Notes under the pieces: generated by a model
The model's database searches: none
Told to the model about the DNA's origin: nothing
What the model saw: the letters and a program-made list of their open reading frames with translations, nothing else
Shown here: positions 802-44,857 of the stretch, piece by piece
Position numbering within the stretch: the stretch's first letter is position 1
Layout of the letters: every line of letters starts with the position of its first letter
Program-made: the position numbers and the translations under genes
Sequence record: OR352946.1
Strand: one strand, 5' to 3'
Length of the DNA: 64,000 bases
Source: Escherichia phage AV116

Positions 802-811
802 TTTTTTAAGA

Positions 812-1248: not shown

Positions 1249-1279
1249 TCTTTTTAAACTTTTTCTGCCCTAAACGCAC

Positions 1280-1301
1280 AAAAGGGAGACCGAAGTCTCC
1301 C
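1280..1301 (-). terminator. intrinsic terminator (GGGAGACCGAAGTCTCCC + U-run)
   Basis: 7-bp perfect stem with CGAAG-type loop followed by UUUU on the minus strand. Confidence 0.65.
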
Positions 1302-1306
1302 TAAAA

Positions 1307-1642
1307 TTATGCAACAACCTTTCCAAAACGAGAAGCATCATCTCGAAGAACTGCACGTGCTCTGCGCATGATCTTCTCAACTGTTTGATTAATACGAGAG
1401 TTCGACCCACGCTTGTATCCAGCGCGTTTAGAGGTACCATCAACTTTCTTTTCAACTGCTTTCTTTGCTTTAGCTTGTTTTGCCATTATAAATTTCTCTT
1501 TAAATGAAAATGCAGGACTTATTGACATTGCCTGCGCAAGCCCTCGAAGGGAACATAGGTTTTGGATATTTAACGACAGGATAACCATAAACCCGTCATC
1601 ATACCTACCATGACTTACACAGCTAACCTTTTGCTGACGCAT
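1307..1642 (-). CDS. small basic protein; true start probably the internal ATG near 1487 (about 60 aa)
   Basis: ORF ends just before the terminator hairpin at 1284..1301; Lys/Arg-rich C-terminal part MAKQAKAKKAVEKK... Confidence 0.35.
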   Translation of the reverse strand: MRQQKVSCVSHGRYDDGFMVILSLNIQNLCSLRGLAQAMSISPAFSFKEKFIMAKQAKAKKAVEKKVDGTSKRAGYKRGSNSRINQTVEKIMRRARAVLRDDASRFGKVVA

Positions 1643-1650
1643 GATAGCAA

Positions 1651-1899
1651 TTATTTCAAAGTAATAACAAAATGACGTACTGCTTTACGAGCTGCAGAAG
1701 CCAAAGGCTTAGCATATTTCAGTTCATCTTTTGCTTCCAGTTCAGAAGCCAAAGCTGCCTGGACCGGGTTCAGATGTTTGAAATAACGAAGGATTTCAAG
1801 AGCTTCGGCTTCAACATCAATAGATGCGCCATAGTTTTCATGACCATTATTCCATGCGTTTCGTTGCAGTTCAAGAGCGTGTTGTAATTGTTTAATCAT
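1651..1899 (-). CDS. rIII: lysis inhibition accessory protein rIII (probable)
   Basis: 82 aa, same length as T4 rIII and located directly downstream of gene 31 as in T4. Confidence 0.6.
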   Translation of the reverse strand: MIKQLQHALELQRNAWNNGHENYGASIDVEAEALEILRYFKHLNPVQAALASELEAKDELKYAKPLASAARKAVRHFVITLK

Positions 1900-2015
1900 T
1901 TTAAATTCTCAATTCGAGATAATATTTAGTAGCCACGTTCGTCTGAATTTCACCTTCTTTCGACAAGTCTCTCAGTTGTAGGCTACCGCTTAGAAGAGTG
2001 TTCTCTTCATATAGT

Positions 2016-2023
2016 TATTTATA
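2016..2023 (-). promoter_or_regulatory. late promoter TATAAATA (minus strand) upstream of rIII
   Basis: Exact TATAAATA on the minus strand. Confidence 0.5.
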
Positions 2024-2356
2024 TCACTTATAAAGACACGGAATAGCTTTATAGTGGCATGTTACGAATTTCTGTTTAATTTCTTTAGGTTGTTTAAGTC
2101 CTAAAGCCACAAATGGATGTGGAACATTTCGAATTTGTCCAACTGGTAGTGGAGTCAAATCACCGACTTCAACAAAACCTTCAGGAACATCAGGACCTAC
2201 AGAATGAACTACACATAGTTCAGGAACTTCACCTTGAACACGTTTACCAATCACAAGTCCTGATTCGGTAACTTCTTCATCACCTGCTTGAGCGGGTTCA
2301 GAAACCAGAATGACATATTCACCAACAGCACGAATTGGGAGTTGTACTTCAGACAT
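2024..2356 (-). CDS. 31: gp31 co-chaperonin (GroES analogue)
   Basis: 110 aa, [34 protein letters not shown]... matches recalled T4 gp31 nearly residue for residue. Confidence 0.85.
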
Positions 2357-2413
2357 CTTATTTCCTTGTTGTTTGACGATAGATTAATAATACCATACTA
2401 TTCGTAAAGCATA

Positions 2414-2722
2414 TTACATAAGAAGCAAACGTTCTACCGGAGTACCATCAACCGAAATTACTTTATCAAGGCGGAAAGAACGCCACTGACCTAACTTGGT
2501 ATCGAATGCTCGAACTGATTCACGAGGTTCAGAACGAACTTCTGTTGCTGGATTTCTATTTTCATATTTGACTTCAAGTTCATCACGGGAGGCAAACATC
2601 GTACGAACATCACCATTAGCCTTTTCAAATACAACACAATGAACACCTACAGACAGAATAGTTTTAATACGTTCACGAAGAACCATAGTTTCTTGTTCAG
2701 TTAAAATCATATTATTCACCAC
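2414..2722 (-). CDS. hypothetical protein
   Basis: 102-aa ORF between cd and 31. Confidence 0.45.
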   Translation of the reverse strand: MVNNMILTEQETMVLRERIKTILSVGVHCVVFEKANGDVRTMFASRDELEVKYENRNPATEVRSEPRESVRAFDTKLGQWRSFRLDKVISVDGTPVERLLLM

Positions 2723-3293
2723 AAAAGTTTCGAATTTGTTCCCAATTCAGAGAACGAAGATTATTACGAGAGTACTGAATTACTTCAATACCAGCTTGTT
2801 TTAGAATGTCTGCCCAATTTTCAGGAGACCGGTCATATAATTCTGCATATACAACCTTTTTAATGCCTGACTGTGTGATAGCTTTAGTGCAATCAGGACA
2901 TGGAGAAAGTGTCGTATATAACGTAGCACCTTCAATAGAATTACCTTTACGAGCTGCAAACAAAATTGCATTCAATTCCGCATGGATTTCGTTATTAGCA
3001 GACCATGCACTATGAGCAGCCCGATGTTCTTTAGCCAAAACAAAATTATCTGCCCGTCCAAATGCTGTAGTGCCTTCTTTATGTCCAGCAACGATGACCT
3101 GGCTTGGTTTATTCTTCAACCAGCCGTTTTCGGATGCATGTTCGCAACAGTTTGTACCACCTGAAGGAGAGCCATTATAACCTGTAGAAATAATGCGTCC
3201 ATCTTTTTCAATGACGGCACCAACTTTCCATGAACAACATTTTGATTCTTGAGAAATCAAATAAGCAATTTGAAGATATGTGCTAGCTTTCAT
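2712..3293 (-). CDS. cd: dCMP deaminase
   Basis: 193 aa; zinc-binding cytidine/dCMP deaminase motifs (HAE...PCxxC: CEHASENG, LSPCPDCTKA); same length as T4 Cd. Confidence 0.85.
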   Translation of the reverse strand: MKASTYLQIAYLISQESKCCSWKVGAVIEKDGRIISTGYNGSPSGGTNCCEHASENGWLKNKPSQVIVAGHKEGTTAFGRADNFVLAKEHRAAHSAWSANNEIHAELNAILFAARKGNSIEGATLYTTLSPCPDCTKAITQSGIKKVVYAELYDRSPENWADILKQAGIEVIQYSRNNLRSLNWEQIRNFCGE

Positions 3294-4285
3294 TATTGAA
3301 CCTTATTAATATAAGTTAACAGCTCTTTAGTTTGTTCCCAACTGATGCACGCATCGGTAACGGAAACGCCATAGGACATATTATCAGAAATTTTTTGATT
3401 TCCTTCATGTAGGAATGATTCTATCATAATTCCTTTGACCAAATCATTAGCTGCTAAATTTTTACCAATATCAATTTGATTGCTATAATGCCCAGCAGCG
3501 TTTGCATGGCTACAGTCAACCATTACATAATGATTCAGACCTACTGCCCTTGCTTTGTTAGAAGCTTCTTGAATATCAGAAGAATGATAGTTCGGGCCGT
3601 TAGTCCCGCCACGCAATACGATATGCGTATTCTGATTACCTTCAGCTTCAACAATGCCTACAGTACCATCGACGTCCATACCCATATACCGATGAGGCCG
3701 CGCGGCACTATACATCGCGTCTGTAGCTACTTTAATAGAACCATTGGTTGCGTTCTTGAAGCCTACGCACATCGGTAGACCTGAAGCAATTTCACGATGT
3801 GTCTGACTTTCAGTCGTACGGGCGCCAATAGCAACCCATGAGAAAATACCAGAAAGATACTTAATCGTGAATGGGTCTAATACTTCAGTTGCTAATGGAA
3901 GTCCCATACGTAGAAGTTTACGACACAATGTTCGTGCAACTATAAGACCGTGGTTCATATCAAAACTTCCGTCAAGATATGGATCATTTACAAGACCTTT
4001 CCAACCTACGGTAGTTCGAGGCTTTTCAAAATAAACGCGCATCACTAACAGAACATTAGGAAGACGAGTTTGAAGTTCAGCCAGACGTTTGCCGTATTCA
4101 ACAGCAGCAATAGGGTCATGAATTGAACAAGGACCTACAACAATAAGTTTGCGTGGGTCTTCACCGTTCATAATCGAATTAACTTGTTCGCGATGAGAAG
4201 CCACTTGTGATGCGTAAGCTTCCGACAAAGGAATAATCTCAGCCAGTTCTTTTGGAGAAATAAGTTTTCTGACGACAGGTAACAT
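3293..4285 (-). CDS. 3-deoxy-7-phosphoheptulonate (DAHP) synthase, class I AroG-like
   Basis: 330 aa; VMRVYFEKPRTTVGWKGLVNDP, WVAIGARTTESQTHRE and other blocks near-identical to E. coli AroG. Confidence 0.85.
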   Translation of the reverse strand: MLPVVRKLISPKELAEIIPLSEAYASQVASHREQVNSIMNGEDPRKLIVVGPCSIHDPIAAVEYGKRLAELQTRLPNVLLVMRVYFEKPRTTVGWKGLVNDPYLDGSFDMNHGLIVARTLCRKLLRMGLPLATEVLDPFTIKYLSGIFSWVAIGARTTESQTHREIASGLPMCVGFKNATNGSIKVATDAMYSAARPHRYMGMDVDGTVGIVEAEGNQNTHIVLRGGTNGPNYHSSDIQEASNKARAVGLNHYVMVDCSHANAAGHYSNQIDIGKNLAANDLVKGIMIESFLHEGNQKISDNMSYGVSVTDACISWEQTKELLTYINKVQ

Positions 4286-4405
4286 AACAATCCTTAGGAG
4301 ATATAAACAGATTCTGATTCAACAATACCTTTAACCGGATTAGACAGGCTAAGTTGGTAGTGCTCAGATTTATGACCATTCTCGATAGTAATGAGATAGC
4401 TCTCA

Positions 4406-4642
4406 TTATAGTGTTCCATATACTCGAGTTGCTTCAACAAGACCATCACTGCCTAATTTAAGATTAGTAATTTGGTCACCATCTTTAGGATTAACGATTA
4501 TGAGAAAAGAACGTGGAGATTCTTGAATAACTCGTAATGTTGCATCCTGGAAACGTTCAGACACTTTATTGATGAGTGCTTGAGCAAATTCTTTTACTTT
4601 AATCTGAAATTCGTGTACTGTAATTGGATTTTCACTTAGCAT
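4406..4642 (-). CDS. hypothetical protein
   Basis: 78-aa ORF; T4-type early promoter upstream at 4667..4698. Confidence 0.45.
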   Translation of the reverse strand: MLSENPITVHEFQIKVKEFAQALINKVSERFQDATLRVIQESPRSFLIIVNPKDGDQITNLKLGSDGLVEATRVYGTL

Positions 4643-4666
4643 TTCGATTTCCTCATTTTGGTAGAG

Positions 4667-4698
4667 TCATCATAACACAACTCTACAGTGTTGTAAAC
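4667..4698 (-). promoter_or_regulatory. T4-type early promoter
   Basis: GTTTACAACACTGTAGAGTTGTGTTATGATGAC on the minus strand. Confidence 0.5.
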
Positions 4699-4974
4699 TT
4701 AAATTGCAAAACATTTAATTTCTTGTGAATCGAAATCAACTTCACACTGAATTACTAGATCAGCATCAAGTCCAAACACAACAATCACATGAGCCGAGCT
4801 GGGCAACAACGTAACAGACACAGAATCCACTTGGTCAGGCACTAGTGTATTCAAAACGTAGAGTAGTTCAGAGTGGACCTTAAGCTCAGTAGCCGTATCC
4901 AGCTTATCAAAGAAATGATTTGCGATAATCTGACTAAAAACTACCTTTACAATTTCAGAATATTTAGGGAACAT
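4699..4974 (-). CDS. hypothetical protein
   Basis: 91-aa ORF. Confidence 0.4.
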   Translation of the reverse strand: MFPKYSEIVKVVFSQIIANHFFDKLDTATELKVHSELLYVLNTLVPDQVDSVSVTLLPSSAHVIVVFGLDADLVIQCEVDFDSQEIKCFAI

Positions 4975-4981
4975 AATTACC

Positions 4982-5206
4982 TCAGTGCACAGTATTTACT
5001 TTAACTCGAACAACAAATCGCTCGGTCGGTTCACCTACAGGAACAAACTCTACATGATATTCGCCTTTGTATCGAGTATTCAGGTCATTACGAATTCCCG
5101 CGAGTTTGTTGATTAATGTAGGACTCATATTAAGTCCAACTAGTTTACGAAGCATTTTGTATGCTTCATCTTCGATTTCATGATGTTTATCGTACATAGT
5201 TTTCAT
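4982..5206 (-). CDS. hypothetical protein
   Basis: 74-aa ORF. Confidence 0.4.
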   Translation of the reverse strand: MKTMYDKHHEIEDEAYKMLRKLVGLNMSPTLINKLAGIRNDLNTRYKGEYHVEFVPVGEPTERFVVRVKVNTVH

Positions 5207-5377
5207 TTAACCATTCAATTGCCTGGTCGACATTATCAAATATACCACCGTCCAAACGTTCTTCACGCTCATAGTCCATCACATCAATACCGAACTGTCC
5301 ATTTACTAAAGGCCAGGCTACAAACAAATATTCTTTATGATGTTCGATGGCCTCAATCACTTCATATAATCGTTTCA

Positions 5378-5378
<1 letters not shown>
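5187..5378 (-). CDS. hypothetical protein
   Basis: 63-aa ORF abutting pseT. Confidence 0.4.
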
Positions 5379-6464
<1,086 letters not shown>

Positions 6465-6465
<1 letters not shown>

Positions 6466-6764
6466 TATTTTATTCCTAAGAAAGTTTCAAGAATACGAAT
6501 GTTATGCTCGCGCCGGTCTTTATTAATTTCAGCAACGTTTTTATTGATTGACGTACTTCTAACGTTTGAAGAAATAAATTTAATCATATGACTTTTGAGT
6601 TGTTGCAAATCCAACCCTTTTTCTTTAGCAGCTTTACGAAGAGCTTTACCTGCTTCATCTAGTGCCTTTGCTGCATCTTTGTCATAATCGACAAGTGACA
6701 TTCCACGGCAGATATCAATATACTCATCAGACCGTTTGATGTAATTCTCTAGTATTGTTTTCAT
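6465..6764 (-). CDS. hypothetical protein (pseT.2 position)
   Basis: 99-aa ORF; early promoter at 6792..6822. Confidence 0.45.
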
Positions 6765-6791
6765 TTAGATTTCCTCAATTATCCATAGGAG

Positions 6792-6822
6792 CATTATACT
6801 CTGCTCCCGAGAGTTTGTAAAC
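6792..6822 (-). promoter_or_regulatory. T4-type early promoter
   Basis: GTTTACAAACTCTCGGGAGCAGAGTATAATGC on the minus strand. Confidence 0.55.
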
Positions 6823-7046
6823 TATTTTACTAAAGATTCAATATACTCATGAAGAGCTTTAGTCGCTACTGCCCACTTATTCTGATATTCATTTTTCAGA
6901 TTAGCACGAGACTGAACTAACAAGCGGTCATTAGTCGGAGGCAAAGATTCTAATCGTTGAATCTGGCGTCCATAAATCATAGCCGCCATTTCAGATTCAT
7001 AGATAAGCCCTTTAATGTATTCATGCTGTTCTTTAGTCATTGGCAT
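6822..7046 (-). CDS. hypothetical protein
   Basis: 74-aa ORF. Confidence 0.4.
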   Translation of the reverse strand: MPMTKEQHEYIKGLIYESEMAAMIYGRQIQRLESLPPTNDRLLVQSRANLKNEYQNKWAVATKALHEYIESLVK

Positions 7047-7327
7047 TTTTCCTCTTTTAAACCACTACGATAATAACATAACATAGTCTTCTGGTCATGT
7101 ATATATCTTTTTACGTCGTTTAACCAGATACGAAATTCTTGAGAGTCTTCAAATGGCATTCCAACCCACGGATTACCATCAATAACCTTTACTTGCCATT
7201 TCTGGTTGTATTCGGAAATAGGCGTAGGCCATGAAGGATGTAAAGTTTCTTTAGGGCTTACTGGCACATCCTGAGTACATCCAACTAGGAGACCAATAGA
7301 TAATACAGCCACAGTTAATTTAATCAT
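7037..7327 (-). CDS. putative lipoprotein
   Basis: 96 aa; signal peptide with lipobox LLVGC near N-terminus. Confidence 0.45.
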   Translation of the reverse strand: MIKLTVAVLSIGLLVGCTQDVPVSPKETLHPSWPTPISEYNQKWQVKVIDGNPWVGMPFEDSQEFRIWLNDVKRYIHDQKTMLCYYRSGLKEEKCQ

Positions 7328-7680
7328 TCTGAGAGCTTCCTGAGGTCTTCTGCAAAGGAATCGAAGGACCTGTTGATTTGTTTTTCGACCAATCCTGGCT
7401 TACTTGCCACCACGTTCTTCTTCTTCGAATCCTTACGGAGCTTTTCATTTTCGGCCTTAAGTTGGTCAACTAAAACACGGTTCTTATAAGTCATTTCTTC
7501 GATTGACTGATATTGAACCTTGAAGTCGTCTAATACTTTAGCATTGTTTTTAGCAGCCTCTTTGACAGAAGCTAATTCAGTATTCAACGAATCAACTTTG
7601 TTGTTTAAGACAACTATTGTTACAGTAGAAACTAGAGCAAAAGCGGCTACTATAGCGTAAATCGGATTTACTTTAAGCAT
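7324..7680 (-). CDS. hypothetical membrane-anchored coiled-coil protein
   Basis: 118 aa; N-terminal hydrophobic helix followed by K/E-rich heptad-like sequence. Confidence 0.4.
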   Translation of the reverse strand: MLKVNPIYAIVAAFALVSTVTIVVLNNKVDSLNTELASVKEAAKNNAKVLDDFKVQYQSIEEMTYKNRVLVDQLKAENEKLRKDSKKKNVVASKPGLVEKQINRSFDSFAEDLRKLSE

Positions 7681-8168
7681 GTTTTAATAATCTCAATGAT
7701 TTCATCTCGGGACAATCCATTGATAAGAACGGTTTTCAAACCATCGCACTGGATTTTGTATGATTCAAACAATACACACAACTCTTCTGCTGTATGATAC
7801 GGACTTGAAATTCCGAGGCGGTTGAATTTGTCGGTAAGAGGGTCGCAAATAATGTAGAATTTTATACCTGCGATATGTACGTTTGGTTGACTAATATTAA
7901 TGAACACATTAGCGTCGTATTTAGTCAAATTGTTTTGAAGAAATTCTACCATGGCATTAACTGCTTCCGGCATCGCTTCGCGTTTCTCTTCAGCGTATCG
8001 GGTGGAATACTCTTTTTGTTTTACTTTCTTTTTAAGATTTTTGGCCAGTGTAACACGTAGGTCGGTAAGATATCCAACTGGACGTCCTTTCTTAAAGACC
8101 CGGATTCCGTCTGTAGAATCACCAAATGCTGCTACAACCATATCGTTAGTAATCAATTGCATATTCAT
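7668..8168 (-). CDS. alc: Alc-like protein (inhibitor of host transcription), probable
   Basis: 166 aa ORF at the T4 alc position between pseT.x genes and rnlA; early promoter at 8197..8229. Confidence 0.55.
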   Translation of the reverse strand: MNMQLITNDMVVAAFGDSTDGIRVFKKGRPVGYLTDLRVTLAKNLKKKVKQKEYSTRYAEEKREAMPEAVNAMVEFLQNNLTKYDANVFINISQPNVHIAGIKFYIICDPLTDKFNRLGISSPYHTAEELCVLFESYKIQCDGLKTVLINGLSRDEIIEIIKTCLK

Positions 8169-8196
8169 AATTTTCTCCTCGTGTTATTGATAAAAG

Positions 8197-8229
8197 CCAT
8201 AGTAACACCATCCTTGGTGTTTGTAAACC
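8197..8229 (-). promoter_or_regulatory. T4-type early promoter (upstream of alc)
   Basis: GTTTACAAACACCAAGGATGGTGTTACTATGG on the minus strand. Confidence 0.55.
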
Positions 8230-8230
8230 A

Positions 8231-9364
<1,134 letters not shown>

Positions 9365-11675: not shown

Positions 11676-13940
11676 TTAAAGCTTACAAGCAGAACAATCT
11701 TCAGCTTTAGGTGTTTCTAATTCATAGTCATCTGTACCTGACCCATCACGAGTGTTATGATAGTAGAGGTTTTTTCCGCCAAAGTACCAGAAGTAAAGCA
11801 GATCGTCAAGCATTACTGACATTGGCACTTTACCTTTCTCAAATACTGCAGGGTCATAGTAAGTATTAGCAGAAGCAGATTGGCACACCCATTTCAACAT
11901 GATAGCAACTTGGGTCAAATAAGGTTTATTACCTTTCTTAGCAAGTTTCCACGCGTAGTCGTAAAGACTCATGTTATGTTCTATATTAGGAACAACCTGT
12001 CGGAAGTTGCCTTCTTTAGATTCTTTAATACTTACAGGTCCACGAGGTGGTTCTATACCATTTGTGCTATTTGAGACTTGACTGCTTGACTCACAAGGCA
12101 TGAGTGCAGACAACGTTGAGTTACGAATTCCATGTTCTTTGAGTTCAGCTCGAAGTTCTTCCCAGTCACAGACATAGTTCGGGGCTGCGATTTGGTCAAT
12201 CTTTTTATTGTACCAGTCGATAGGTAATTCGCCTCTAGACCATTTAGTGTCTGAATAATACTCACAAGGTCCTTTTTCTTTGGCGAGTTTGATTGATGCT
12301 TTGATAAGGCCATATTGCAATCTCTCGAACAATTCATGGGTCAAATCGTTAGCGTCTTCATATGAAGCAAAGTTAGAAGCTAACCATGCAGCATAGTTCG
12401 TCACACCAACACCGAGATTTCGACGCTTTTTAGCTTTTAAAGCTTCTGGAACCGGATAATCTTGATAGTCTAACAGGTTATCAAGTGCACGTACTTGTAC
12501 TTCAGCAAGTTCATTAATTTTATCTTGGTCTTGCCAATCAAATTTATCTAATACAAAAGCAGATAATGTGCATAAACCAATTTCAGCATCAGGACCATTC
12601 ACATCATTAGTTGGAATAGCGATTTCACAACATAAGTTACTCTGACGAATTGGAGCTTTTTCACGAATAAACGGAGTGTAGTTATTCGTGTTATCAACAA
12701 ACTGTGGATAAATTCGAGCAGTGCCAGAACGTTCAGTCATGAACAATTCAAAGAGTTCTAGTGCTTTGATTCTTTTCTTTCTGATTGTTGGGTCTTTTTC
12801 AGCTTTCTCATAAAGCTCACGGAATTTATCTTGATCTTCAAAGAACGAGTAGTATAGTTCACCTGACATTTCGTGAGGGCTAAATAAAGTAATATAATCA
12901 TTTTTACCAAGGCGTTCCATCATAAGGTCATTAATCTGAATTCCGTAGTCCATATGTCGAATACGGTTTTCATCCACGCCTTTGTTATTTTTCAGAACTA
13001 ATAGGTTCTCTACTTCTAAGTGCCACATCGGATAATACGCTGTAGCAGCACCACCACGAATACCACCTTGAGAACAAGATTTTACTGCAGTTTGGAAATG
13101 TTTCCAGAATGGAATAACACCTGTATGTCGAACTTCACCCGTACCGATCTTAGAACCTTCTGCACGAAGCATACCAACGTTGATACCGATACCAGCTCGT
13201 TTAGAAATATATTCAATAATTGATGCTGAAGTTTTGTTAATAGATTTTAACGAATCACCTGCTTCAATAACTACACAACTAGAGAACTGGCGAGTTGGAG
13301 TACGAGCACCTGCCATAATTGGGGTTGGCAATGAAACTTGATGAGTAGAAACGGCATCATAAAAACGAATAATATGTTTCAAACGGTCATGAGTTTCGTC
13401 TTGGTGTAAGGCCATGCCAATAGCCATGATAGCAAACTGGGGAGTTTCATAAATCTTCCCAGTTGTTTTATCTTTAACTAGATATTTTTCTTTAAGCTGC
13501 ATAGCACCAGCATAAGTCAGGTCAAAGTCTCGTTCATGTTTAATCTGTGAATCGAGATAAATGATTTCTTCTGCTGAATATTGAGACAACAGCTCAGGGT
13601 CATATTTGCCTTCATTAACACAGTAAGAAATATGGTCTATAAAAGCAGGCGGTTCAAACTGCCCATATACATCTTTACGAAGTGCAAACATTAGCCCTTT
13701 GGCGGCGACATACTGATAATCAGGTTCTTCGACAGAAATCAAGTTAGCTGCAACTTTAATACAAATCTTCTGAATATCTTTGGTGCTCATCCCGTCGACA
13801 AGATGGGTCTTAATTTCTTCATACAATTCGTATGGGTCGATTTGTGTTCCTTCACACTGCCAAGTTAATACTTGAATAATTTTCTGTGCATCAAAATTTT
13901 GGGATACACCTGAATTTTTCACTACTTTAAAATTATACAT
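11676..13940 (-). CDS. nrdA: ribonucleotide reductase large subunit
   Basis: 754 aa (same as T4 NrdA); ATP-cone N-terminus and class Ia RNR catalytic core with NLCCEI active-site region. Confidence 0.9.
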   Translation of the reverse strand: MYNFKVVKNSGVSQNFDAQKIIQVLTWQCEGTQIDPYELYEEIKTHLVDGMSTKDIQKICIKVAANLISVEEPDYQYVAAKGLMFALRKDVYGQFEPPAFIDHISYCVNEGKYDPELLSQYSAEEIIYLDSQIKHERDFDLTYAGAMQLKEKYLVKDKTTGKIYETPQFAIMAIGMALHQDETHDRLKHIIRFYDAVSTHQVSLPTPIMAGARTPTRQFSSCVVIEAGDSLKSINKTSASIIEYISKRAGIGINVGMLRAEGSKIGTGEVRHTGVIPFWKHFQTAVKSCSQGGIRGGAATAYYPMWHLEVENLLVLKNNKGVDENRIRHMDYGIQINDLMMERLGKNDYITLFSPHEMSGELYYSFFEDQDKFRELYEKAEKDPTIRKKRIKALELFELFMTERSGTARIYPQFVDNTNNYTPFIREKAPIRQSNLCCEIAIPTNDVNGPDAEIGLCTLSAFVLDKFDWQDQDKINELAEVQVRALDNLLDYQDYPVPEALKAKKRRNLGVGVTNYAAWLASNFASYEDANDLTHELFERLQYGLIKASIKLAKEKGPCEYYSDTKWSRGELPIDWYNKKIDQIAAPNYVCDWEELRAELKEHGIRNSTLSALMPCESSSQVSNSTNGIEPPRGPVSIKESKEGNFRQVVPNIEHNMSLYDYAWKLAKKGNKPYLTQVAIMLKWVCQSASANTYYDPAVFEKGKVPMSVMLDDLLYFWYFGGKNLYYHNTRDGSGTDDYELETPKAEDCSACKL

Positions 13941-14580
13941 AATAATTCCATGTTGGATAATTTGATGATTTTAGACGGCGTCTAACCGTTTGGGTGCTCA
14001 TAGATAAAATTATTGACGCTTCATTTAATGTATCATATATTACGTCGTTTATAATTACTTTCTTTGCAAATGGATTCTTAGCTCCTATCATAGCGTTAGA
14101 AATAGCTTGCTTAGTTGATTCTTTTAATGGGACTCCTTTAGAAATTTTTGTTTTAATTTTTATATTGTATTGTCCGCGTTTTTTACCTAATAAAGAATTT
14201 CGTATCTTTTCTTTAGTCTCTTCAGATTTAACATGTCCTAGTTTGGAACGAGATATTTTATCTTTTGTTTTTTGGTCTAATTTTCGCCCTTTAAGCAAAT
14301 CAACCATTTTTGCTCTAGCCCATCCAAATTCTTTATTATTTCTAGAACTCATTAAATTAACCGCGGTTGCTAAACCTAAATTGTTCGGATATATTTTTAA
14401 TAAAAGAAGATGAGCCAAATAATGTTCTGAATATGTTAATTTAACTAGATTGTATGACTCATTGGTGCCACCTAAACATTTTGGGATTATATGATGCCAT
14501 TCACCATCGATATCTTCAAAATTTCTTTCTTTATTTACTAAGTTTTTATATATTTTTAAATAATCCATAGTATAATCCAC
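13933..14580 (-). CDS. free-standing HNH homing endonuclease (Mob-like); likely start at internal Met near 14568
   Basis: HHIIPK...GG...N...EH HNH motif; paralogous to ORF 41091..41903; overlaps nrdA start by 8 nt. Confidence 0.7.
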   Translation of the reverse strand: MDYTMDYLKIYKNLVNKERNFEDIDGEWHHIIPKCLGGTNESYNLVKLTYSEHYLAHLLLLKIYPNNLGLATAVNLMSSRNNKEFGWARAKMVDLLKGRKLDQKTKDKISRSKLGHVKSEETKEKIRNSLLGKKRGQYNIKIKTKISKGVPLKESTKQAISNAMIGAKNPFAKKVIINDVIYDTLNEASIILSMSTQTVRRRLKSSNYPTWNYYV

Positions 14581-14899: not shown

Positions 14900-15211
14900 T
14901 TATACCGCCATTTTAGCTTTGATAGCTGGATGTGATTCGTAATTTTTAAGAACGAAATCAGAATGTGTCATCGTTCCGGTAACCCAGTCCATTTGGATTT
15001 TTGTAGGCCAATTCTCAAAATTACTAGGCCAATTAATTTCAAGAGAACATAACTCTTTAGGTTCACGACGAAGAACTTCTTTGCATTGTTCTACATGATT
15101 GCTGTAGATATGCGTGTTGCCGCCTGAGAACACTAAATCACCTGGGATAAGGTTACACATCTTCGCTACAATATGTGTCAAGGCAGCGTACGAGGCGATG
15201 TTGAACGGTAG
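14900..15211 (-). CDS. td: thymidylate synthase, exon 2
   Basis: LPFNIASYAALTHIVAKMCNLIPGD... TS C-terminal region; the ORF's ATG is the last three nt of the intron (ends ...AATG). Confidence 0.85.
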   Translation of the reverse strand, partial: LPFNIASYAALTHIVAKMCNLIPGDLVFSGGNTHIYSNHVEQCKEVLRREPKELCSLEINWPSNFENWPTKIQMDWVTGTMTHSDFVLKNYESHPAIKAKMAV

Positions 15212-16227
15212 CATTATGTTCAGATAAGGTCGTTAATCTTATCCCGGAATTATATCCAGCTGCATGTCACCATGCAGAGCAGACTATATCTCCAACTTGT
15301 TAAAGCAAGTTGTCTATCGTTTCGAGTCACTTGACCCTACTCCCTAAAGGGATAGTCGTTAGGCATTTATGTAGAACCAATTCCACTTATCAGATTTTAC
15401 ACGGTAAGTAACTAATCCTGATGAAATTTCAAAATGTCTAGCCGCATCGGCTGCACATTCAAAAATAATCCCATCGCATGAAATCTTTTTGATGTTAGCT
15501 GGCTTTTTGCCTTTCATCTTTTCAGATAGTTTAGTTTTAGTTTTTTCTGAATGTTTGTGATTAAAGAACGGGTTATTTTCACCTGAACGTTTTCGGCACT
15601 TTCCACAAGTATCGGCCGAAGATGGTATGCGAACACCGCATTTACAAAACTTGTGGTTTTCTGGATTCCATCGGCCATTTTTACTTCCGTGTTTACCATA
15701 AAGAGCTTTCCGACCATCAGGACCAAGCTTAAGCATCTTAGCTTTAACAGTTTCAGCTCGTTTCTTAGCAATTTCTTCTTTTAATGGATGATTTGAAAGC
15801 ACATCGCCAAAAGACGCATCAGCAATATTATATCCATTAATTTTAGAATTTAGCTCTTTAATCCAAAAATTTTCTCGTTCAATAATCAAATCTTTCTCAT
15901 ATGGAATTTCTTCCAGTATAGAGCATTCAAAAACATTACCATGTTTATTAAAAGACCTTTGAAATTTTATAGAAGAGTGAACACCGTTTTCAAGGTCTTT
16001 AAAATGTCTCTTCCATCTTTTCTCAAAATCTTTAGCACTTCCAACATACACTTTACCGTTTAAAGTGTTTTTAATCTGATAAATTCCGCTTTTCATAAAC
16101 ACCTCTTTTTATATAGAAGTATTTATTAAAGGGTAGTCCTACAATTTAGCACGGGATTGTCTACTAGAGAGGTCCCCCGTTTAGATAGATTACAAGTATA
16201 AGTCACCTTATACCTAGGCCTAAATTA
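15212..16227 (-). mobile_element. td group I intron (1016 nt)
   Basis: 5' end TAATTTAGGCCTAGGTATAAGGTGACTTATACTTGTAATCTATCTAAACGGGG... matches the T4 td intron as recalled; length 1016 nt equals T4 td intron. Confidence 0.85.
15359..16102 (-). CDS. intron-encoded GIY-YIG homing endonuclease I-TevI
   Basis: 247 aa; SGIYQIKNTLNGKVYVGSA GIY-YIG motif, zinc finger CKCG...CGKC; matches recalled I-TevI (245 aa). Confidence 0.85.
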   Translation of the reverse strand: MFMKSGIYQIKNTLNGKVYVGSAKDFEKRWKRHFKDLENGVHSSIKFQRSFNKHGNVFECSILEEIPYEKDLIIERENFWIKELNSKINGYNIADASFGDVLSNHPLKEEIAKKRAETVKAKMLKLGPDGRKALYGKHGSKNGRWNPENHKFCKCGVRIPSSADTCGKCRKRSGENNPFFNHKHSEKTKTKLSEKMKGKKPANIKKISCDGIIFECAADAARHFEISSGLVTYRVKSDKWNWFYINA

Positions 16228-38815: not shown

Positions 38816-38832
38816 CTACAGGCGGAATTTCA

Positions 38833-39642
38833 TTAACAACTTCGTCGCATTCTAACCAGCCGTAGTGTGCATCGCGTCATCATCCATGTTTGTTCTTTAA
38901 TAACACTTCCGATTGGATATACAATACCACCATAAACAGCCATGATATTACCACGTTCACCCCATGGAGCTTCCTTGGCCAAATATACATCGTCAAATTC
39001 TGGGAAGTATTTAATATCTTTAACACCACGAACTTCTGCAATATCACCTAGAGGACGCATAACATAAGCAATTTCGGATGCGAACTTTTCAAAATCTTCT
39101 GGGTTAACAGGCACAACTACTTCAACGCCGGTCCGGTCATCAGGACCCATCTTATCTACGAAGGTTGGCTTAATCTGTGGACCCGTGTCATCTTGGTAGA
39201 TTACGTAACCACGAACTTCACCGTTGTGATAAGACGTAAGGTTAAACGTATCGGTATATGCTAATGGAGCTTTAGAGCCGAGTCCGAATCCACCAATGAA
39301 ATCGTTACTCGATGTTTTAGTTGAAGCAAAATATGAGTTATAGATTCCTGGCTCTTCGTCATTACCTCGAATGGTGAAATCACTCATACCAGGACCAAAG
39401 TCTCGAACTACAAAACGTGGGTCTAAACGACCTGGAGCCTGAACAATAAACTTATCAGTGCAACCATTAAGAATTTGTCCATCGATACAGTTTGTGATTA
39501 ATTCACGTACACAAGCCAATTCTTTGTTTGTATAAAGGTCATTAGACAAAATCTTATAAACTTTGCTATTGCCTTGAATAGTAAATGCTGTGCTCTTACC
39601 GCCTGAACCAATAATCGTTTCTTTAGCCGTTTCGATAATCAT
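38833..39642 (-). pseudogene. rIIA: rIIA-like protein, N-terminal GHKL-ATPase region only (premature stop / frame change)
   Basis: Bergerat-fold motifs [27 protein letters not shown]; ORF stops after 269 codons and protein-like sequence continues in the +1 frame (38691..38876). Confidence 0.5.
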
Positions 39643-39947: not shown

Positions 39948-41048
39948 TTACGCTGTGAAGATTTTATCCCACATCGCAACAACTGCATCTCGATTATACT
40001 TCTTCCATACTGCTTCAGCACGTTTAACTCGAGCTTCGTATGTGTCAGTGAATTCTAATACAGCTTTTGTGTAAAGCGCAACTACTTCTTTCTTAGGAGT
40101 AGAGGAATCAATTTCTACACGCACAGTATCTGGGTCGTATTCGAATGTCGCATGAGGATAATCCTTAAAAACTAACTGGATTACAGGGACACCTTTAGAG
40201 ATGGCTTCAATAGAACTATTCTCTACCGTACCTGTGTCAGGACACGTATTAATAAGTGCTTTAGCTGTTTTAAGACGTTCCATGATTTCACTATGTGGAG
40301 CATCAATAATAACAGGATACTTAGCCGGTGGTGCCCATTTACTAGGACAGTATCCTGCACCATTTTCGCCTAGTGCTTTAATCGCTTCAAGAGCAACATC
40401 AGTGCGACGCATTTTAGTGTCATAACGTTGGGCACTAATAATCAAATCAGTTGCTGGGAGAACTTCTGGCTTTTCGGTCAAACAAATAACCGGGTAGTCA
40501 TCATGTTCAAATAATGGATTTTCACGCCAGTAATCATAATCAATGCTATCAGTAAGAGCTGAAGTCATATGGCAATATTTACGTTCAAATTCACGGAATG
40601 CTTTAGTAGGAGCATAGCTCTTACCACCGTATTTGTGGGTAAGAATAGTTTGTTTCCAAATTTCTACAATACCGCGAGATACAGGCTCAAATGGAGTTGC
40701 CATAAAATTTCTATGAACACTGGATAAACCGGCATCTTTAATTGCGTTAACAGTTAGTTTAGTCGGTTCCATAGTAACAACAAAATCGTATTCATGGATG
40801 CCGGCTAGTTCAACAATCTTACGAGCCATAGTATAACTCATACCTAGACTGAATTTAGTCAGATGACCAACAGGATGATGATTAACTTTCCAGTCACCAA
40901 ACGTGTCATTATCAAAGCCGATATAATCAATATCAGCACCGATGGACACAAGATATTTCAACACATTTAAATGTACTGCTTCAAGGCCACCTTGTACACG
41001 GTCAGGATTAAATGGGACTGCACGAGATGGGATAAACATAACTTTCAT
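39948..41048 (-). CDS. putative GT-B fold glycosyltransferase
   Basis: 366 aa; C-terminal ENSSIEAISKGVPVIQ resembles the GT-B E-x(n)-E/A-x-x-G-x-PV donor-binding motif; no counterpart at this position in T4. Confidence 0.5.
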   Translation of the reverse strand: MKVMFIPSRAVPFNPDRVQGGLEAVHLNVLKYLVSIGADIDYIGFDNDTFGDWKVNHHPVGHLTKFSLGMSYTMARKIVELAGIHEYDFVVTMEPTKLTVNAIKDAGLSSVHRNFMATPFEPVSRGIVEIWKQTILTHKYGGKSYAPTKAFREFERKYCHMTSALTDSIDYDYWRENPLFEHDDYPVICLTEKPEVLPATDLIISAQRYDTKMRRTDVALEAIKALGENGAGYCPSKWAPPAKYPVIIDAPHSEIMERLKTAKALINTCPDTGTVENSSIEAISKGVPVIQLVFKDYPHATFEYDPDTVRVEIDSSTPKKEVVALYTKAVLEFTDTYEARVKRAEAVWKKYNRDAVVAMWDKIFTA

Positions 41049-41059
41049 AATTAAGCCTT

Positions 41060-41092
41060 ATTAAAATTAAAATGAAGCTCCCGAAGGAGCTT
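41060..41092 (-). terminator. intrinsic terminator downstream of HNH endonuclease gene
   Basis: AAGCTCCTTCGGGAGCTT hairpin followed by U-rich tract on the minus strand. Confidence 0.55.
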
Positions 41093-41888
41093 AGGACATC
41101 CAACACATTTTATAACCTTTGCAGGTTCTGTTAGGATTATTTAATGCTTTCAATATATTAGAAGACCCTATATCTAAATACTCCCTTAATTCATAAAGAT
41201 AGTTAAAATCAATAGTTTCACCTGTTTTTACACTTGTGATTCTTATAGGCCTTCTTTCATATTTAGATTTATACAACTCTCTAGTCTTAGCTTTAGTTTC
41301 TTCTGACCTAGGAGTGTATGGTTTAAATCCTTTTGTTTTAAATGTTTCCATTCTTGATTTAGTTATTTTATCCTGGTGTTCTTTTGTTTTTACAGGTGCT
41401 TTTCGCCCATTCTCCCAAGATAACTTGTTGGCCTGTATTATTTTATCTATTGCTTCTTGCGTATGAGTTTTACCATAAAATGGATTTAATTCGCCTATAC
41501 GTTGTGAAGCAATATGTGACATTAATTCTCTTGTTGCTTTAGTATGTTTTTTACCTTTAAATGGATTGCCATTTTTAGCAATCCATTCTTTCATAAATCT
41601 AGAGTGCTCTTTAGAGAATTCTTGTTTAAGCCAATCATAATCTCTAGAATTTCTAGCTCCCATGTAAAAAGCTCTAATAGCCATAAGCATAGAACGGTTC
41701 TTATGAATTTTATAAAGCAATAAATGGGCGATAAAATGCTCTCTAGGGGTCATTTTAACTAGATTTGATTTAGCATTACTCCCACCCATAGATTTAGGCA
41801 AAATATGGTGAGTTTCAGTATAATTAGGAATAGTGCTGCGGTTTTTAGCCGCAGCGATAAGTTTATCATAAATTTTACGATAATTCAT
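41091..41888 (-). CDS. HNH homing endonuclease (MobA-like); start taken at MNYRKIY, TAATG-coupled to gene 39 stop
   Basis: THHILPKSMGG...N...REHFIAH HNH motif; paralogue of ORF 13933..14568. Confidence 0.7.
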   Translation of the reverse strand: MNYRKIYDKLIAAAKNRSTIPNYTETHHILPKSMGGSNAKSNLVKMTPREHFIAHLLLYKIHKNRSMLMAIRAFYMGARNSRDYDWLKQEFSKEHSRFMKEWIAKNGNPFKGKKHTKATRELMSHIASQRIGELNPFYGKTHTQEAIDKIIQANKLSWENGRKAPVKTKEHQDKITKSRMETFKTKGFKPYTPRSEETKAKTRELYKSKYERRPIRITSVKTGETIDFNYLYELREYLDIGSSNILKALNNPNRTCKGYKMCWMS

Positions 41889-43711
41889 TATCCTAGCATC
41901 CAATCTTTACGGAGTTCAGGGTCGTTACCCATGAGCATTTCAAATAGTTCTTTCCAATTTTCAGGAAGTTTAACTACGTCGTACACAGGGTTTTGAATCA
42001 TTTCTTTATATTCATCCCGCTGAAGTGAGCCCAATCCCTTGATGTATCGAATACTATGCTTAGGCAGTGTATCTTTAACTTCTTCATACTCAGCTACAGT
42101 ATAAAACCATTTTTGAGTTTTGCCAATTTGTGCAATAATTACAGGCGTTTTAACAAAGCGAATACGTCCTTGTTCAAACAATTCAGGCCAATTACTAAAG
42201 AAAGCAAGCAAAGCCGGATAAATACTTCCAAGGCCGTCATGATCGGCATCGGTCATAATTGCAATATTACGGTAGTTCGTATTCTCTGCCTTTTCACCAA
42301 GAATAAGACCCGTGATAGCACAGATATCAAAGAGCTCTTTGTTCTTCATCATATCGGCATATGACATACCCCAGCTATTCATCACCTTACCACGTAATGG
42401 GAATCCGCCGTGTAGTTCACGGTCACGAACATCAATGAGATAACCAATTGCCGAATCACCTTCTGTTAAAAACAATGTCGTATCTGCATCTTTACCACAT
42501 TGGTTAGCTTTAATATGCTTATGAACCTTAGCTTTAGTTGCCTTTTTAGCTGCTTTAGTTTCTGCAGCCTTTTCTGCTGCCAATTTACGAGCTAATGCGG
42601 CTTCAATTATAGGCATTAAAACTGCGTCAGAATTCAAAATATTTTTTGCCAATTTTTTTGTATCTAATTTAATATGCGTCCGAATTTCGCCATAAGGACT
42701 TGTTAAACGCTCTTTGGTTTGGGAATCAAAACGAAGGTTCTTCATTCCACGAACGAACATTAAGAGAGTGAGACATTCCTTGATTCGCGCTTTAGTCACG
42801 TCGATTTTATATTTGCGTTTAATAGCCGGAATTAATTCTTCGCTAATGTCGTCCATCACACATTCAATGTGATGACCACCGTTTTTGGTATGGATGTTAT
42901 TCACATAAGTTAAATGACGGAAGCCATCTGGTGACCGTCCAATGGCAATAGAGCATCCGTCTTGTTCTTGAATGATGGTCTCTTCATCAAATTGTTTAGC
43001 AAACTTCTTAAAGTTACCTTGAATCTTTTTGCCATTAAATTTAAATTCAATACCAGGATAAACGACCGCCAATGTTTGGAGCCGGTCTATAGTAATATCT
43101 TGGTATATTTTTTCAAATTGATTCATTTCAAAATGTGAGAAATCAGGAATAAACTCGACCTTAGTACCGTTGTTTTTAGACGGCTTAGATTTCCAAGAAA
43201 TATTATCAGCGTTATTAGAACAATTAACGGTCAATTCATTTTTACCATCTGAAGTAGTGCCAACAAAAGAGACAGAAAAAATATTTGTTAATGAAGAACC
43301 GACACCGTTTTGTCCACCCGTAACACGTTCTTTGTCGTCACCAAAGTTGCCACCGGCTTTTGTACGTGTCCACGCCGCAACTGGTCCTGGAATTTCTTCT
43401 CCTTCAGGAGTAATAACTGTTTCTTGAGGAATACCTCGACCATTATCTTCAACAGTCACTTTATTAGAATTTAAATCAATACTAACGGAAATTTTATTAG
43501 CATATTTGAAATTGGTTCGAATAGCTTCGTCTACTGAGTTGTCAATAATTTCATCAATTAATTTGAGAACACCTGCAACATATTTAACCTTTTTAAATTC
43601 ACCGAATAGGAAACGTTCTTGTTCTTCATTGGCAACACTTCCAATATACATGCCAGGACGCTTCAAACAATGCTCTTTATCAGATAGCATTTCAATTTTA
43701 TTATCAATCAT
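41888..43711 (-). CDS. 39: DNA topoisomerase II large subunit gp39, unsplit (includes the region encoded by T4 gene 60)
   Basis: GHKL ATPase motifs (LIDEIIDNSVDE, DNGRGIP) plus C-terminal TOPRIM region IMTDADHDGLGSIYPALLAFFSNWPELFEQGRIRFVKTP matching recalled T4 gp60. Confidence 0.85.
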   Translation of the reverse strand: MIDNKIEMLSDKEHCLKRPGMYIGSVANEEQERFLFGEFKKVKYVAGVLKLIDEIIDNSVDEAIRTNFKYANKISVSIDLNSNKVTVEDNGRGIPQETVITPEGEEIPGPVAAWTRTKAGGNFGDDKERVTGGQNGVGSSLTNIFSVSFVGTTSDGKNELTVNCSNNADNISWKSKPSKNNGTKVEFIPDFSHFEMNQFEKIYQDITIDRLQTLAVVYPGIEFKFNGKKIQGNFKKFAKQFDEETIIQEQDGCSIAIGRSPDGFRHLTYVNNIHTKNGGHHIECVMDDISEELIPAIKRKYKIDVTKARIKECLTLLMFVRGMKNLRFDSQTKERLTSPYGEIRTHIKLDTKKLAKNILNSDAVLMPIIEAALARKLAAEKAAETKAAKKATKAKVHKHIKANQCGKDADTTLFLTEGDSAIGYLIDVRDRELHGGFPLRGKVMNSWGMSYADMMKNKELFDICAITGLILGEKAENTNYRNIAIMTDADHDGLGSIYPALLAFFSNWPELFEQGRIRFVKTPVIIAQIGKTQKWFYTVAEYEEVKDTLPKHSIRYIKGLGSLQRDEYKEMIQNPVYDVVKLPENWKELFEMLMGNDPELRKDWMLG

Positions 43712-44387
43712 TAGATTTTCTCTCAAATTGCATGACTATATTTTTGTATGAACCTTCCGGAAATCCACGTTTAATGCTTTCTTTAGCAAATTTCCCAACC
43801 TTTGGTTTATCCAATTCTAACCATAATTTATATAAAGCAGATTCATATTCCCATACAGGACTTTTACGATTTTTAAGCCCACACTTTATAAGCGCTTCCT
43901 TTGTATGTTTCTTATTATAAAATGGATTGTTTTTGCCACTCATTGCTTTAGAATGTTCCGGGCGCTTAATTCCATACATCGGATTAAGATCGCCTTTCTT
44001 GATAACGGATTGTAGTTCAATAGTTTCTTCAGAGTGATTGTGTCCATAAAATGGATTTAACTCTTTTGAAACATCCATACCAAAGCACCCATCGACTGTG
44101 GCATAAGACATGTTGAAAAATTTTTCAGATTTAACCACATTATGCAATTTCTGGTAATACAACTCACAAAACGTCGCTTCTTCCCGTGTATCAAATTCGC
44201 CAATAATACATGAATCAAATAAATGAGGATTATCTTTTATCTCTTTATCATAAATTTGTTTATATTTTTTCGACTTTACCGTACCATGATAGTGATTGTT
44301 TGTATGTTTATCAAGATAAGTAGACCCTATATAAAACGGTGGCAACTTATCGCCTGTGTATATTGTTAAGTATGTTATGTATTTCAT
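43704..44387 (-). CDS. GIY-YIG homing endonuclease (Seg-like)
   Basis: 227 aa; YITYLTIYTGDKLPPFYIGST motif and three NPFYG/NPMYG repeats typical of Seg/I-TevI DNA-binding modules; overlaps gene 39 start. Confidence 0.65.
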   Translation of the reverse strand: MKYITYLTIYTGDKLPPFYIGSTYLDKHTNNHYHGTVKSKKYKQIYDKEIKDNPHLFDSCIIGEFDTREEATFCELYYQKLHNVVKSEKFFNMSYATVDGCFGMDVSKELNPFYGHNHSEETIELQSVIKKGDLNPMYGIKRPEHSKAMSGKNNPFYNKKHTKEALIKCGLKNRKSPVWEYESALYKLWLELDKPKVGKFAKESIKRGFPEGSYKNIVMQFERKSND

Positions 44388-44416
44388 AAAGGTATTCTAT
44401 CATCCGAAATCTAAAG

Positions 44417-44435
44417 CAAAAAGGGCCGAAGCCCT
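44417..44435 (-). terminator. intrinsic terminator
   Basis: AGGGCTTCGGCCCT hairpin followed by UUUUU on the minus strand. Confidence 0.6.
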
Positions 44436-44857
44436 TATTTAAATTTAATTTTCTGAAGTGCATCAATTGCAGCCAAACGCCCTTGTTCACTTTTAACTGT
44501 AACGACCACATCGCCTGATACGATCACCGAACCATCAACAAATTCTATAGAGCCTTTTTTGAAATCGACAGCTGTATCTGGTTCCGGAACTTCTTCAAAG
44601 AATTTAAATTCTGCACCATAAAGCAGAATATCACCTTGCATACTAATGATTGTACGTCCAGGTCCATCGGTTTCAGCGGCAATAATCGAAACGCCGTAAC
44701 CAATCATCTCTTCCACAATAAAATCTTTGGACAATAAAGTAGTATGCAGATTAGTATTAAGACGTTTACCAGTCGTATTAAGAATTCTCAAGAAATTATC
44801 TTCCTGTCCTTTGATAATACGATATTTCTTACCAACTTCAAAACCTTTAAAAGCCAT
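44435..44857 (-). CDS. hypothetical protein
   Basis: 140-aa ORF followed by terminator hairpin 44422..44435. Confidence 0.45.
   Translation of the reverse strand: MAFKGFEVGKKYRIIKGQEDNFLRILNTTGKRLNTNLHTTLLSKDFIVEEMIGYGVSIIAAETDGPGRTIISMQGDILLYGAEFKFFEEVPEPDTAVDFKKGSIEFVDGSVIVSGDVVVTVKSEQGRLAAIDALQKIKFK

Follow-up and report, generated by a model that had tools for sequence, protein, structure and literature searches.

Two unrelated homing endonuclease genes, one GIY-YIG and one HNH, at the two ends of an unsplit topoisomerase gene 39 in Escherichia phage AV116

The Seg enzymes of phage T4 (SegA-G) and I-TevI combine a GIY-YIG domain with NUMOD3/I-TevI-type DNA-binding modules, the Seg genes being free-standing, and SegF (genes 56/69) and SegG (gene 32) bring about localised marker exclusion together with co-conversion of the neighbouring gene. 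T4 MobE, a Mob-type HNH enzyme that has been tested experimentally, is encoded between nrdA and nrdB, overlapping a conserved essential gene, and targets nrdB; it apparently acts at a distance on the neighbouring gene and mobilises flanking DNA (Edgell review; PMC2790892). A third system, the MobA element, interrupts the gene for the topoisomerase large subunit (Topo2L) at nt 1399-1419 with ~1.1 kb comprising the parts named CTE, NTE and HomR and the 50-nt bypass, and is found at one single site in all clades (bioRxiv 10.1101/2022.08.31.505936); the definition of MobA used throughout is taken from that work by Manning & Atkins and from the Edgell review. Here we describe the gene 39 locus of Escherichia phage AV116 in a stretch of 64,000 nt of record OR352946.1 (the window), in which the topoisomerase gene is whole and is bordered on both sides by an endonuclease gene. 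We consider it likely, with a probability of roughly 0.85, that an intact gene 39 was colonised at each end, independently, by one of two unrelated, free-standing homing endonuclease genes (HEGs), and that each of these homes together with its flanking sequence.

Three successive minus-strand open reading frames (ORFs) fill positions 41091-44387 of the window: a free-standing GIY-YIG homing endonuclease gene (43704-44387, 227 aa; GIY-YIG domain at about residues 1-96, then NUMOD3 repeats and a helical domain at the C-terminus), the unsplit gene 39 for the topoisomerase II large subunit (41888-43711, 607 codons; ATPase, transducer and TOPRIM regions) and a free-standing Mob-type HNH homing endonuclease gene (41091-41888, 265 aa; HNH domain at residues 1-71, NUMOD3 and a distinct C-terminal region). 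The stop codon of the GIY-YIG gene (TGA, 43706-43704) reaches 8 nt into gene 39, and at the other end the gene 39 stop and the HNH start overlap as TAATG (41890-41886), the A of the HNH ATG being shared with the TAA. The ORF map and the junction sequences thus bear out the positions of the flanking genes and both overlaps as reported in a first-pass annotation of this DNA. Both junctions also appear in the annotation of phage AV109, where the three products are labelled hypothetical protein, DNA topoisomerase large subunit and homing endonuclease; Dhakavirus Bp7 has the 8-nt overlap too, and the 1-nt overlap of gene 39 and the HNH gene is annotated in all seven HNH carriers fetched (AV109, phi25-307, fPS-90, F1, BYEP01, phiC120 and a20). 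Since the overlaps recur in other phages, the arrangement is conserved and a chance pattern of ORFs is excluded. According to the gene map and the junctions both flanking genes are placed between host genes, outside any intron or intein, and their GC content is 0.32, against 0.40 for the 3' part of gene 39 and 0.375 for the whole window.

Positions 40900-44600 are nearly identical to Escherichia phages AV109 and AV114, with one mismatch against AV109, and by its sequence the window phage is classed as a Mosigvirus, RB69-like. Within Mosigvirus the locus is found in four states: with both HEGs (AV109, AV114, AV115 and AV118), with the GIY-YIG gene alone (HX01, JM10 and G2285), with the HNH gene alone (phi25-307, p000v, phiC120, a20 and others) and with neither (FL18, OLB35 and others), the empty sites being clean.

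Gene 39 runs from an ATG at 43711 to the TAA at 41888, which gives 607 codons, or 612 if an upstream TTG is used. Its product contains the Pfam domains HATPase_c, DNA_gyraseB, Toprim and TOPRIM_C, with the TOPRIM motifs EGDSA at residue 417 and DADHDG at residue 488, and aligns free of gaps to residues 1-475 of T4 gp39 (76% identity) and then to T4 gp60 (85%), reading ...IMTDADHDG-LGSIYP... straight across the location of the 50-nt bypass of T4. This uninterrupted alignment means that there is no split and no bypass, and the description of gene 39 in the first-pass annotation, as one ORF of 607-612 codons that includes the region equivalent to gene 60, stands. The unsplit gp39 of T2, T6, RB32 ('60plus39') and RB69-like phages is likewise a single polypeptide of ~605 aa with the T4 gene 60 region; the window protein has no essential difference from these, its allele being a mosaic of three parts, namely a 5' block linked to the GIY-YIG gene, a Mosigvirus core and a 3' end linked to the HNH gene. 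The mobA insert is carried by only 42 of 500 matching phage records (mostly of Tequatrovirus type), and gene 39 is undivided in T2 and T6 as well, so that the unsplit form is the usual one and nothing special.

The insertion of the HNH gene can be followed by comparison with HX01, in which this site is empty and gene 39 ends ...GAA TGG ATG TCC TAA, followed by a hairpin. In the window, gene 39 ends ...GAT TGG ATG CTA GGA TAA-TG..., and it is the HNH ORF that ends ...TGT TGG ATG TCC TAA, followed by the hairpin of HX01; hence 800 nt (41097-41896), with the repeat TGGATG on either side, were inserted two codons short of the stop. The element supplies a new end of gene 39, CTA GGA TAA (L-G-stop; 41888-41896, minus strand), which includes an AGGA motif resembling a Shine-Dalgarno sequence and overlaps the HNH ATG, and the ancestral last codons and stop of gene 39, TGGATGTCCTAA (41091-41102, minus strand), the same as in HNH-less HX01, now close the HNH ORF.

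Over the last ~140 nt of gene 39, HNH-carrying and naive alleles are 88-89% identical, against 97-100% further upstream, and the differences concentrate in the last ~40 nt and in a 22-nt patch, block A (42005-42026, minus strand), where 11 of 22 nt differ and the peptide LQRDEYKE replaces LEKSEYRE. The former was present in all seven HNH carriers examined, from two genera, and the latter in the naive alleles of the Mosigviruses HX01 and FL18, of Tequatrovirus RB32 and in T4 gene 60. The possibility that some HNH carriers are devoid of block A, raised by phiC120 and a20 being unmatched in a 42-nt search, was rejected, as both encode the same peptide with one synonymous change. We regard block A as a candidate target or immunity site of the HNH enzyme, at slightly less than even odds. 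Genomes of the OLB35 type have no HNH gene, yet their block A is of HNH type, their gene 39 ends in L-G-stop and a remnant of 18 nt precedes TCCTAA; eight Mosigvirus records and SP21535 combine an HNH-type block A with the absence of the HNH gene. Because the EWMS-stop end is common to naive Mosigvirus and Bp7, with EWMSQ-stop in Tequatrovirus, it is taken as ancestral, and the OLB35 type is best read as a deletion derivative that bears the footprint of a lost HNH gene.

The HNH protein falls in PHROG 655, 'homing endonuclease', and residues E25, H27, H28, G36, N42, H51 and H55 are invariant in the alignment of 34 homologs. Against the Protein Data Bank (PDB), the family profile matches the HNH domains of a group II intron maturase, of McrA and of Cas8f-HNH fusions. 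Moreover, Pfam detects NUMOD3 in both flanking proteins (E = 5e-9 and 9e-12), and the family profiles of both match the DNA-binding domain of I-TevI (1i3j). Across 27 records the HNH gene keeps an identity of at least 98.6%; in every one of them it abuts gene 39, and the length of its coding sequence (CDS) is intact in 26 of the 27. In AV118 (OR352948.1, 74886-75684) the copy measures 799 nt instead of 798 and its protein matches in two pieces, which points to a frameshifted pseudogene or else to an error in sequencing. Homologs of 45% identity also lie directly 3' of an unsplit gene 39 in metagenomic T4-like contigs, and this common slot indicates that the HNH gene represents an old lineage with its own site.

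The HNH gene is also found in Tequatrovirus, in phages fPS-90, F1 and BYEP01, and phages FN, FL12 and CJY920 carry it as well. The gene 39 of fPS-90 is T4-like (93-99%) as far as nt ~1408, this part being 55-89% identical to the window; from there on, ~400 nt of gene 39, the HNH gene and ~90 nt downstream are 99-100% identical to the window, a mosaic which indicates that a Tequatrovirus received ~1.3 kb from a Mosigvirus-like donor. The tract takes in 49 nt from the start of the 366-aa gene downstream of the cassette (41000-41048, minus strand), and the last 10 of these (41000-41009) are the place of a microhomology crossover. At this right joint the microhomology extends over 9 of 10 nt, AATCCTGACC versus AATGCTGACC, and 3' of it stand 26 nt, TTCGTAAAGAATGGATGAGCCAGTAG, which are the recipient's own and form the very end of a topoisomerase gene of T4 type; on this side the Tequatrovirus loci fetched show no counterpart of the 366-aa gene. 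The crossover in fPS-90 thus reads as homologous on the left (gene 39 nt ~1408-1410) and illegitimate on the right. fPS-90, F1 and BYEP01 differ in where the imported tract begins on the left. SP21535, which has no HNH gene, contains donor-type patches that include block A and keeps the naive Tequatrovirus 3' end, that is, conversion without gain of the gene; it is mainly because this pattern fits a conversion tract beginning near block A and ending before the HNH gene that the likely cut site of the HNH enzyme is placed near block A and not at the insertion point. The 5' part of gene 39 of fPS-90 is ~96-98% identical to T4 and RB32 alike, so that a split and an unsplit ancestor are not separable.

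For the upstream protein, sequence searches reach NUMOD3 only, and its assignment to the GIY-YIG enzymes therefore rests on predicted structure and motifs. A single-sequence search against PDB sequences gave no match, the family profile matched I-TevI in the PDB over the NUMOD3 part only, and tblastn against T4 positions 1-9000 found no match. The AlphaFold model, built with 40 homologs, has a mean pLDDT of 87, with values above 94 over residues 1-90 except for 86 at residues 31-40; the predicted structure is closest to the catalytic domain of I-TevI, which accounts for the top three Foldseek matches (probability 1.00, 0.99 and 0.87), and the predicted fold matches I-TevI, UvrC and EndoII. The family keeps Y10, Y19-I20-G21, K/R27, E75 and N92, residues that were mapped to I-TevI by eye, without superposition, and 16 of 40 relatives match Pfam GIY-YIG. 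On the strength of the model we assign the upstream protein to the GIY-YIG enzymes. In several RefSeq records (HX01, Bp7, IME281 and TG1) the gene is labelled 'HNH endonuclease', as is PHROG 10820, a label that the predicted structure argues to be wrong. The first-pass naming of a Seg-type GIY-YIG gene and a Mob-type HNH gene is right, since the catalytic motifs of both are present on alignment and their residues kept, with the caveat of a lysine at the GIY-YIG arginine position.

The sequence around the GIY-YIG gene is also mosaic. On the 5' side of its start codon all four Mosigvirus types are 100% identical, and the flanks of the GIY-YIG gene and its linked block are 97-100% identical between GIY-carrying and GIY-less Mosigviruses. 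Between these flanks, the first ~1.1 kb of gene 39 (42604-43711, minus strand) forms a foreign block with 61-81% identity to GIY-less Mosigviruses and a sharp switch to 99% at ~42604. Beyond the GIY-carrying Mosigviruses, its nearest relatives are Bp7/FB (78.5%), IME281 (76.9%) and Yersinia phage TG1 (75.3%), all of which carry the GIY-YIG gene, and these carriers from other genera are closer to the block than the GIY-less Mosigviruses are. The gp39 N-terminus MIDNKIEML...KRPGMYIGSV is common to GIY carriers of two genera, the first 26 nt being identical in the window and Bp7, and MIKNEIK[V/I]L...KRSGMYIGSS is common to GIY-less genomes of two genera. The identity pattern and the sharing of the N-termini indicate that the GIY-YIG gene and the 5' block came in as one import, the donor lineage being unsampled. 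In Klebsiella, Proteus, Providencia, Enterobacter and Dhakavirus phages, homologs over the full length (65-78%) precede the topoisomerase gene, and in TG1 a GIY-YIG gene stands beside the topoisomerase gene. Copies at other loci share the nuclease domain alone, the C-terminal helical domain being kept only next to gene 39.

Two terminator-like hairpins border the locus. The first, GGGCTTCGGCCC with a T run (44421-44436, minus strand), ends the upstream gene, is identical in GIY-carrying and GIY-less genomes and marks the upstream border of the unit; the second, AAGCTCC-TTCG-GGAGCTT with a T-rich tail (41075-41092, minus strand), lies just 3' of the HNH stop, and the same hairpin follows gene 39 in HNH-less genomes. 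A putative middle promoter, likely of T4 type, is located at 44394-44420 (minus strand), with a MotA-box-like TTTGCTTTA (44420-44412), 12 nt and a -10 element TAGAAT (44399-44394), elements that we take to follow the T4 middle-promoter consensus; a middle promoter is predicted at the equivalent place in the annotation of fPS-90. Just 6 nt separate the -10 element from the GIY-YIG ATG. Phages without the GIY-YIG gene have a 5' leader with GAGGAG between this promoter and gene 39, and there the promoter likely serves gene 39. A scan for sigma-70 promoters returned 13 sites when 14.4 are expected by chance, so that no internal promoter is claimed for either HEG. From these signals both HEGs appear to be promoter-less passengers whose translation starts are weak or overlapping. 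Several T4 HEGs have been described as likewise promoter-less with such starts (Edgell review).

We propose that both HEGs ride in the transcription unit of gene 39 between the two hairpin terminators. A Seg-type GIY-YIG/NUMOD3 gene inserted between the likely middle promoter and the start codon of gene 39, and the HNH insert brought an L-G-stop that doubles as ribosome-binding site and start, the old gene end coming to terminate the HNH ORF. Were a phage that lacks one of the HEGs to infect the same cell, its naive gene 39 allele would be cut or nicked by the enzyme, in the case of the GIY-YIG enzyme probably somewhere in the 5' part of the gene, and in that of the HNH enzyme probably near block A, ~120-140 nt upstream of the insertion point. 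Repair by recombination would bring in the donor's HEG along with the part of gene 39 next to it, and HEG-carrying alleles would be protected by their diverged flanks, a role in immunity that both block A and the 5' block may have.

Several points weigh against such independent colonisation followed by homing. The activity of both endonucleases is something that we infer from sequence, and the mosaics could in principle have arisen by ordinary homologous recombination with the HEGs as passive partners. Block A is physically linked to the HNH gene, and the perfect association of the two could reflect hitch-hiking and not immunity. In the GIY-YIG protein, Pfam finds NUMOD3 alone, with the N-terminal GIY-YIG domain at E = 0.09, under threshold; hhalign against the window's own I-TevI aligned the NUMOD3 region only; and a lysine takes the place equivalent to Arg27 of I-TevI, where K or R is found across the family. 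Finally, the database holds no close donor of the GIY-linked block, the best being at 78.5%.

An explanation in which the endonucleases are inactive, or have no part in their own spread, would attribute the mosaics to ordinary recombination among T-even phages, whose recombination frequency is very high. It would accommodate a mosaic block in the neighbouring 366-aa gene (~40400-40800) that is unlinked to any HEG, as well as the apparently frameshifted HNH copy of AV118. However, the mosaic edges coincide exactly with the edges of the HEGs, with 100% identity right to the GIY-YIG start codon, and the HNH gene crossed a genus boundary through an illegitimate microhomology joint on the side without homology, which fits the repair of a break better than a simple crossover. 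The conservation of the HNH CDS (at least 98.6%, intact in 26 of 27), its invariant catalytic residues and the site specificity kept across the metagenomic homologs of 45% identity also speak against passive carriage, which we hold to be very unlikely. Alternatively, the endonucleases might be kept mainly as weapons between phages or as regulators, excluding rival gene 39 alleles or modulating the expression of the topoisomerase. By its position between promoter and gene 39, the GIY-YIG gene swaps the strong Shine-Dalgarno sequence GAGGAG for GAGAG, a replacement by which the insertion must alter the translation of gene 39, and HEGs that aid phage competition have been reported for other systems. 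Many close relatives, nevertheless, are without one or both genes, there are apparent losses such as the OLB35 type, and the sequence gives no pointer to a function beyond homing; a role of this kind as the main reason for their retention seems quite unlikely.

The first-pass annotation had also read the locus as a precursor or alternative state of the mobile cassette that split genes 39 and 60 in T4. On such a view the HNH gene would be a MobA that occupies the 3' end of gene 39 and has yet to enter the TOPRIM region, or stays out of it. The nuclease domains do lend this some plausibility: the HNH protein is 61% identical over residues 1-71 to the intact 272-aa MobA of phage G50, and both fall in PHROG 655, so that the description of the HNH gene as MobA-like stands for the 71-aa nuclease domain. 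It fails for residues 72-265, the presumed DNA-binding part, which have no similarity to MobA. Both elements are tied to gene 39, supply replacement codons and overlap the host ORF, and the left crossover of fPS-90 (gene 39 nt ~1408-1410) adjoins the MobA insertion site at nt 1399-1419. This last proximity is accounted for by the strong conservation of the TOPRIM-coding DNA, and the crossovers of F1 and BYEP01 are located elsewhere. The insertion at Topo2L nt 1399-1419 is not present in the window, where gene 39 is continuous; at the window locus none of the CTE, NTE, HomR or bypass parts is found, DADHDG being directly joined to LGSIYP. Moreover, the site of the HNH gene is ~400 nt away, and it is occupied by 45%-identity homologs as well, as opposed to the one site of MobA in all clades. 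The claim of a precursor is thus already largely refuted, and we judge it highly improbable. By sequence the window arrangement is better described as a separate colonisation of the same host gene, and 'alternative state' would apply only loosely, one host gene being open to colonisation by different selfish endonuclease genes.

A different relation between the two elements may be considered, namely that the HNH and MobA-bypass elements compete for gene 39, and that homing of the HNH gene into Tequatroviruses may have overwritten the MobA target region or even a resident mobA-bypass insert. At nt ~1461-1479 of gene 39, in the codons for the TOPRIM DxD motif, F1, BYEP01 and SP21535 read GAC GCA GAT CAC, which matches the HomR of the T4 MobA element at three variant third positions, unlike RB32 and the window. 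These HomR-like codons, along with the place of the fPS-90 crossover, may be taken as weak hints of past activity of, or competition with, a MobA element, and we consider such competition unlikely.

Compared with the described systems, the window HNH element resembles the MobA-bypass element in being a Mob-family HNH gene tied to the topoisomerase large-subunit gene, as a promoter-less ORF that overlaps its host, and in supplying replacement host codons and apparently spreading with flanking sequence. Unlike MobA, which lies inside the TOPRIM-coding region and splits the gene, it is placed ~400 nt further downstream and leaves the gene whole. With MobE it shares the position beside, and overlapping, a conserved essential gene, and the apparent action at a distance on the neighbouring gene with mobilisation of flanking DNA; it differs in its host gene and in its DNA-binding region, and is known from sequence. 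A second Mob-type HNH gene is found in the window on the minus strand (13933-14580, 215 aa), overlapping the start of nrdA (11676-13940) by 8 nt; its product, in a MobE-like position, is 34% identical over 144 aa to that of the gene 39 HNH gene.

By predicted structure and motifs, the GIY-YIG protein has the domain composition of the Seg enzymes and I-TevI, and like the Seg enzymes it is encoded by a free-standing gene. It is at most 27% identical to an annotated SegA elsewhere and belongs to a separate lineage; in at least seven of the records listed, a full-length member of this lineage is encoded upstream of the topoisomerase gene. At 14900-16102 (minus strand) the window has a near-canonical I-TevI gene (247 aa, MKSGIYQIKNTLNGKVYVGSAKDFEKRWKRH...) upstream of a td exon-2-like ORF, which suggests a td group I intron with a GIY-YIG endonuclease in this Mosigvirus. 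In the metagenomic T4-like contig L017 (SRR21291448), a 235-aa gene of the Endonuclease_7 family (1144-1851) stands directly upstream of an unsplit gene 39, indicating that the upstream slot is used by a third class of endonuclease; a distant HNH homolog is present downstream of gene 39 in the same contig.

Downstream of the cassette, the 366-aa gene (39948-41048) encodes a DNA alpha-glucosyltransferase according to the RefSeq annotation of HX01, and falls in PHROG 8302, of unknown function. Over ~40400-40800 it contains a mosaic block with 80-88% identity to other Mosigviruses, which are themselves 93-100% alike there. At ~38830-38875 the window lacks ~2.5 kb relative to AV109, corresponding to all of rIIB and the C-terminal two-thirds of rIIA, and the rIIA ORF (38833-39642), shortened to 269 aa, directly abuts a denB-like gene. 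The HEG-less FL18, with a divergence of ~3% in this region, matches the window unbroken across the rII junction, its rIIA being similarly short and adjacent to the denB-like gene and its rIIB unannotated; the deletion looks like a naturally circulating one.

Both endonucleases are uncharacterised members of well-known HEG classes, for which genome comparison testifies with rare clarity to recent spread between phages, and in databases they are labelled 'homing endonuclease', 'hypothetical protein' or, wrongly for the GIY-YIG protein, 'HNH endonuclease'. An unsplit gene 39 beside an HNH gene says nothing on the origin of the gene 60 bypass of T4. If the competition between HNH and MobA-bypass elements were true, selfish endonucleases would be seen to succeed and exclude one another on a single essential gene in natural phage populations, and block A would be a defined case of target-site immunity inside protein-coding sequence. 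The public genomes already amount to a natural experiment, with donors, naive recipients, a transfer between genera with both junctions, conversion without gain of the gene and footprints of loss. This makes the locus convenient for mapping the target of a new HNH enzyme and for testing target-site immunity encoded in an essential gene, and suits it as well for measuring how HEGs shuffle a core replication gene between phage genera.

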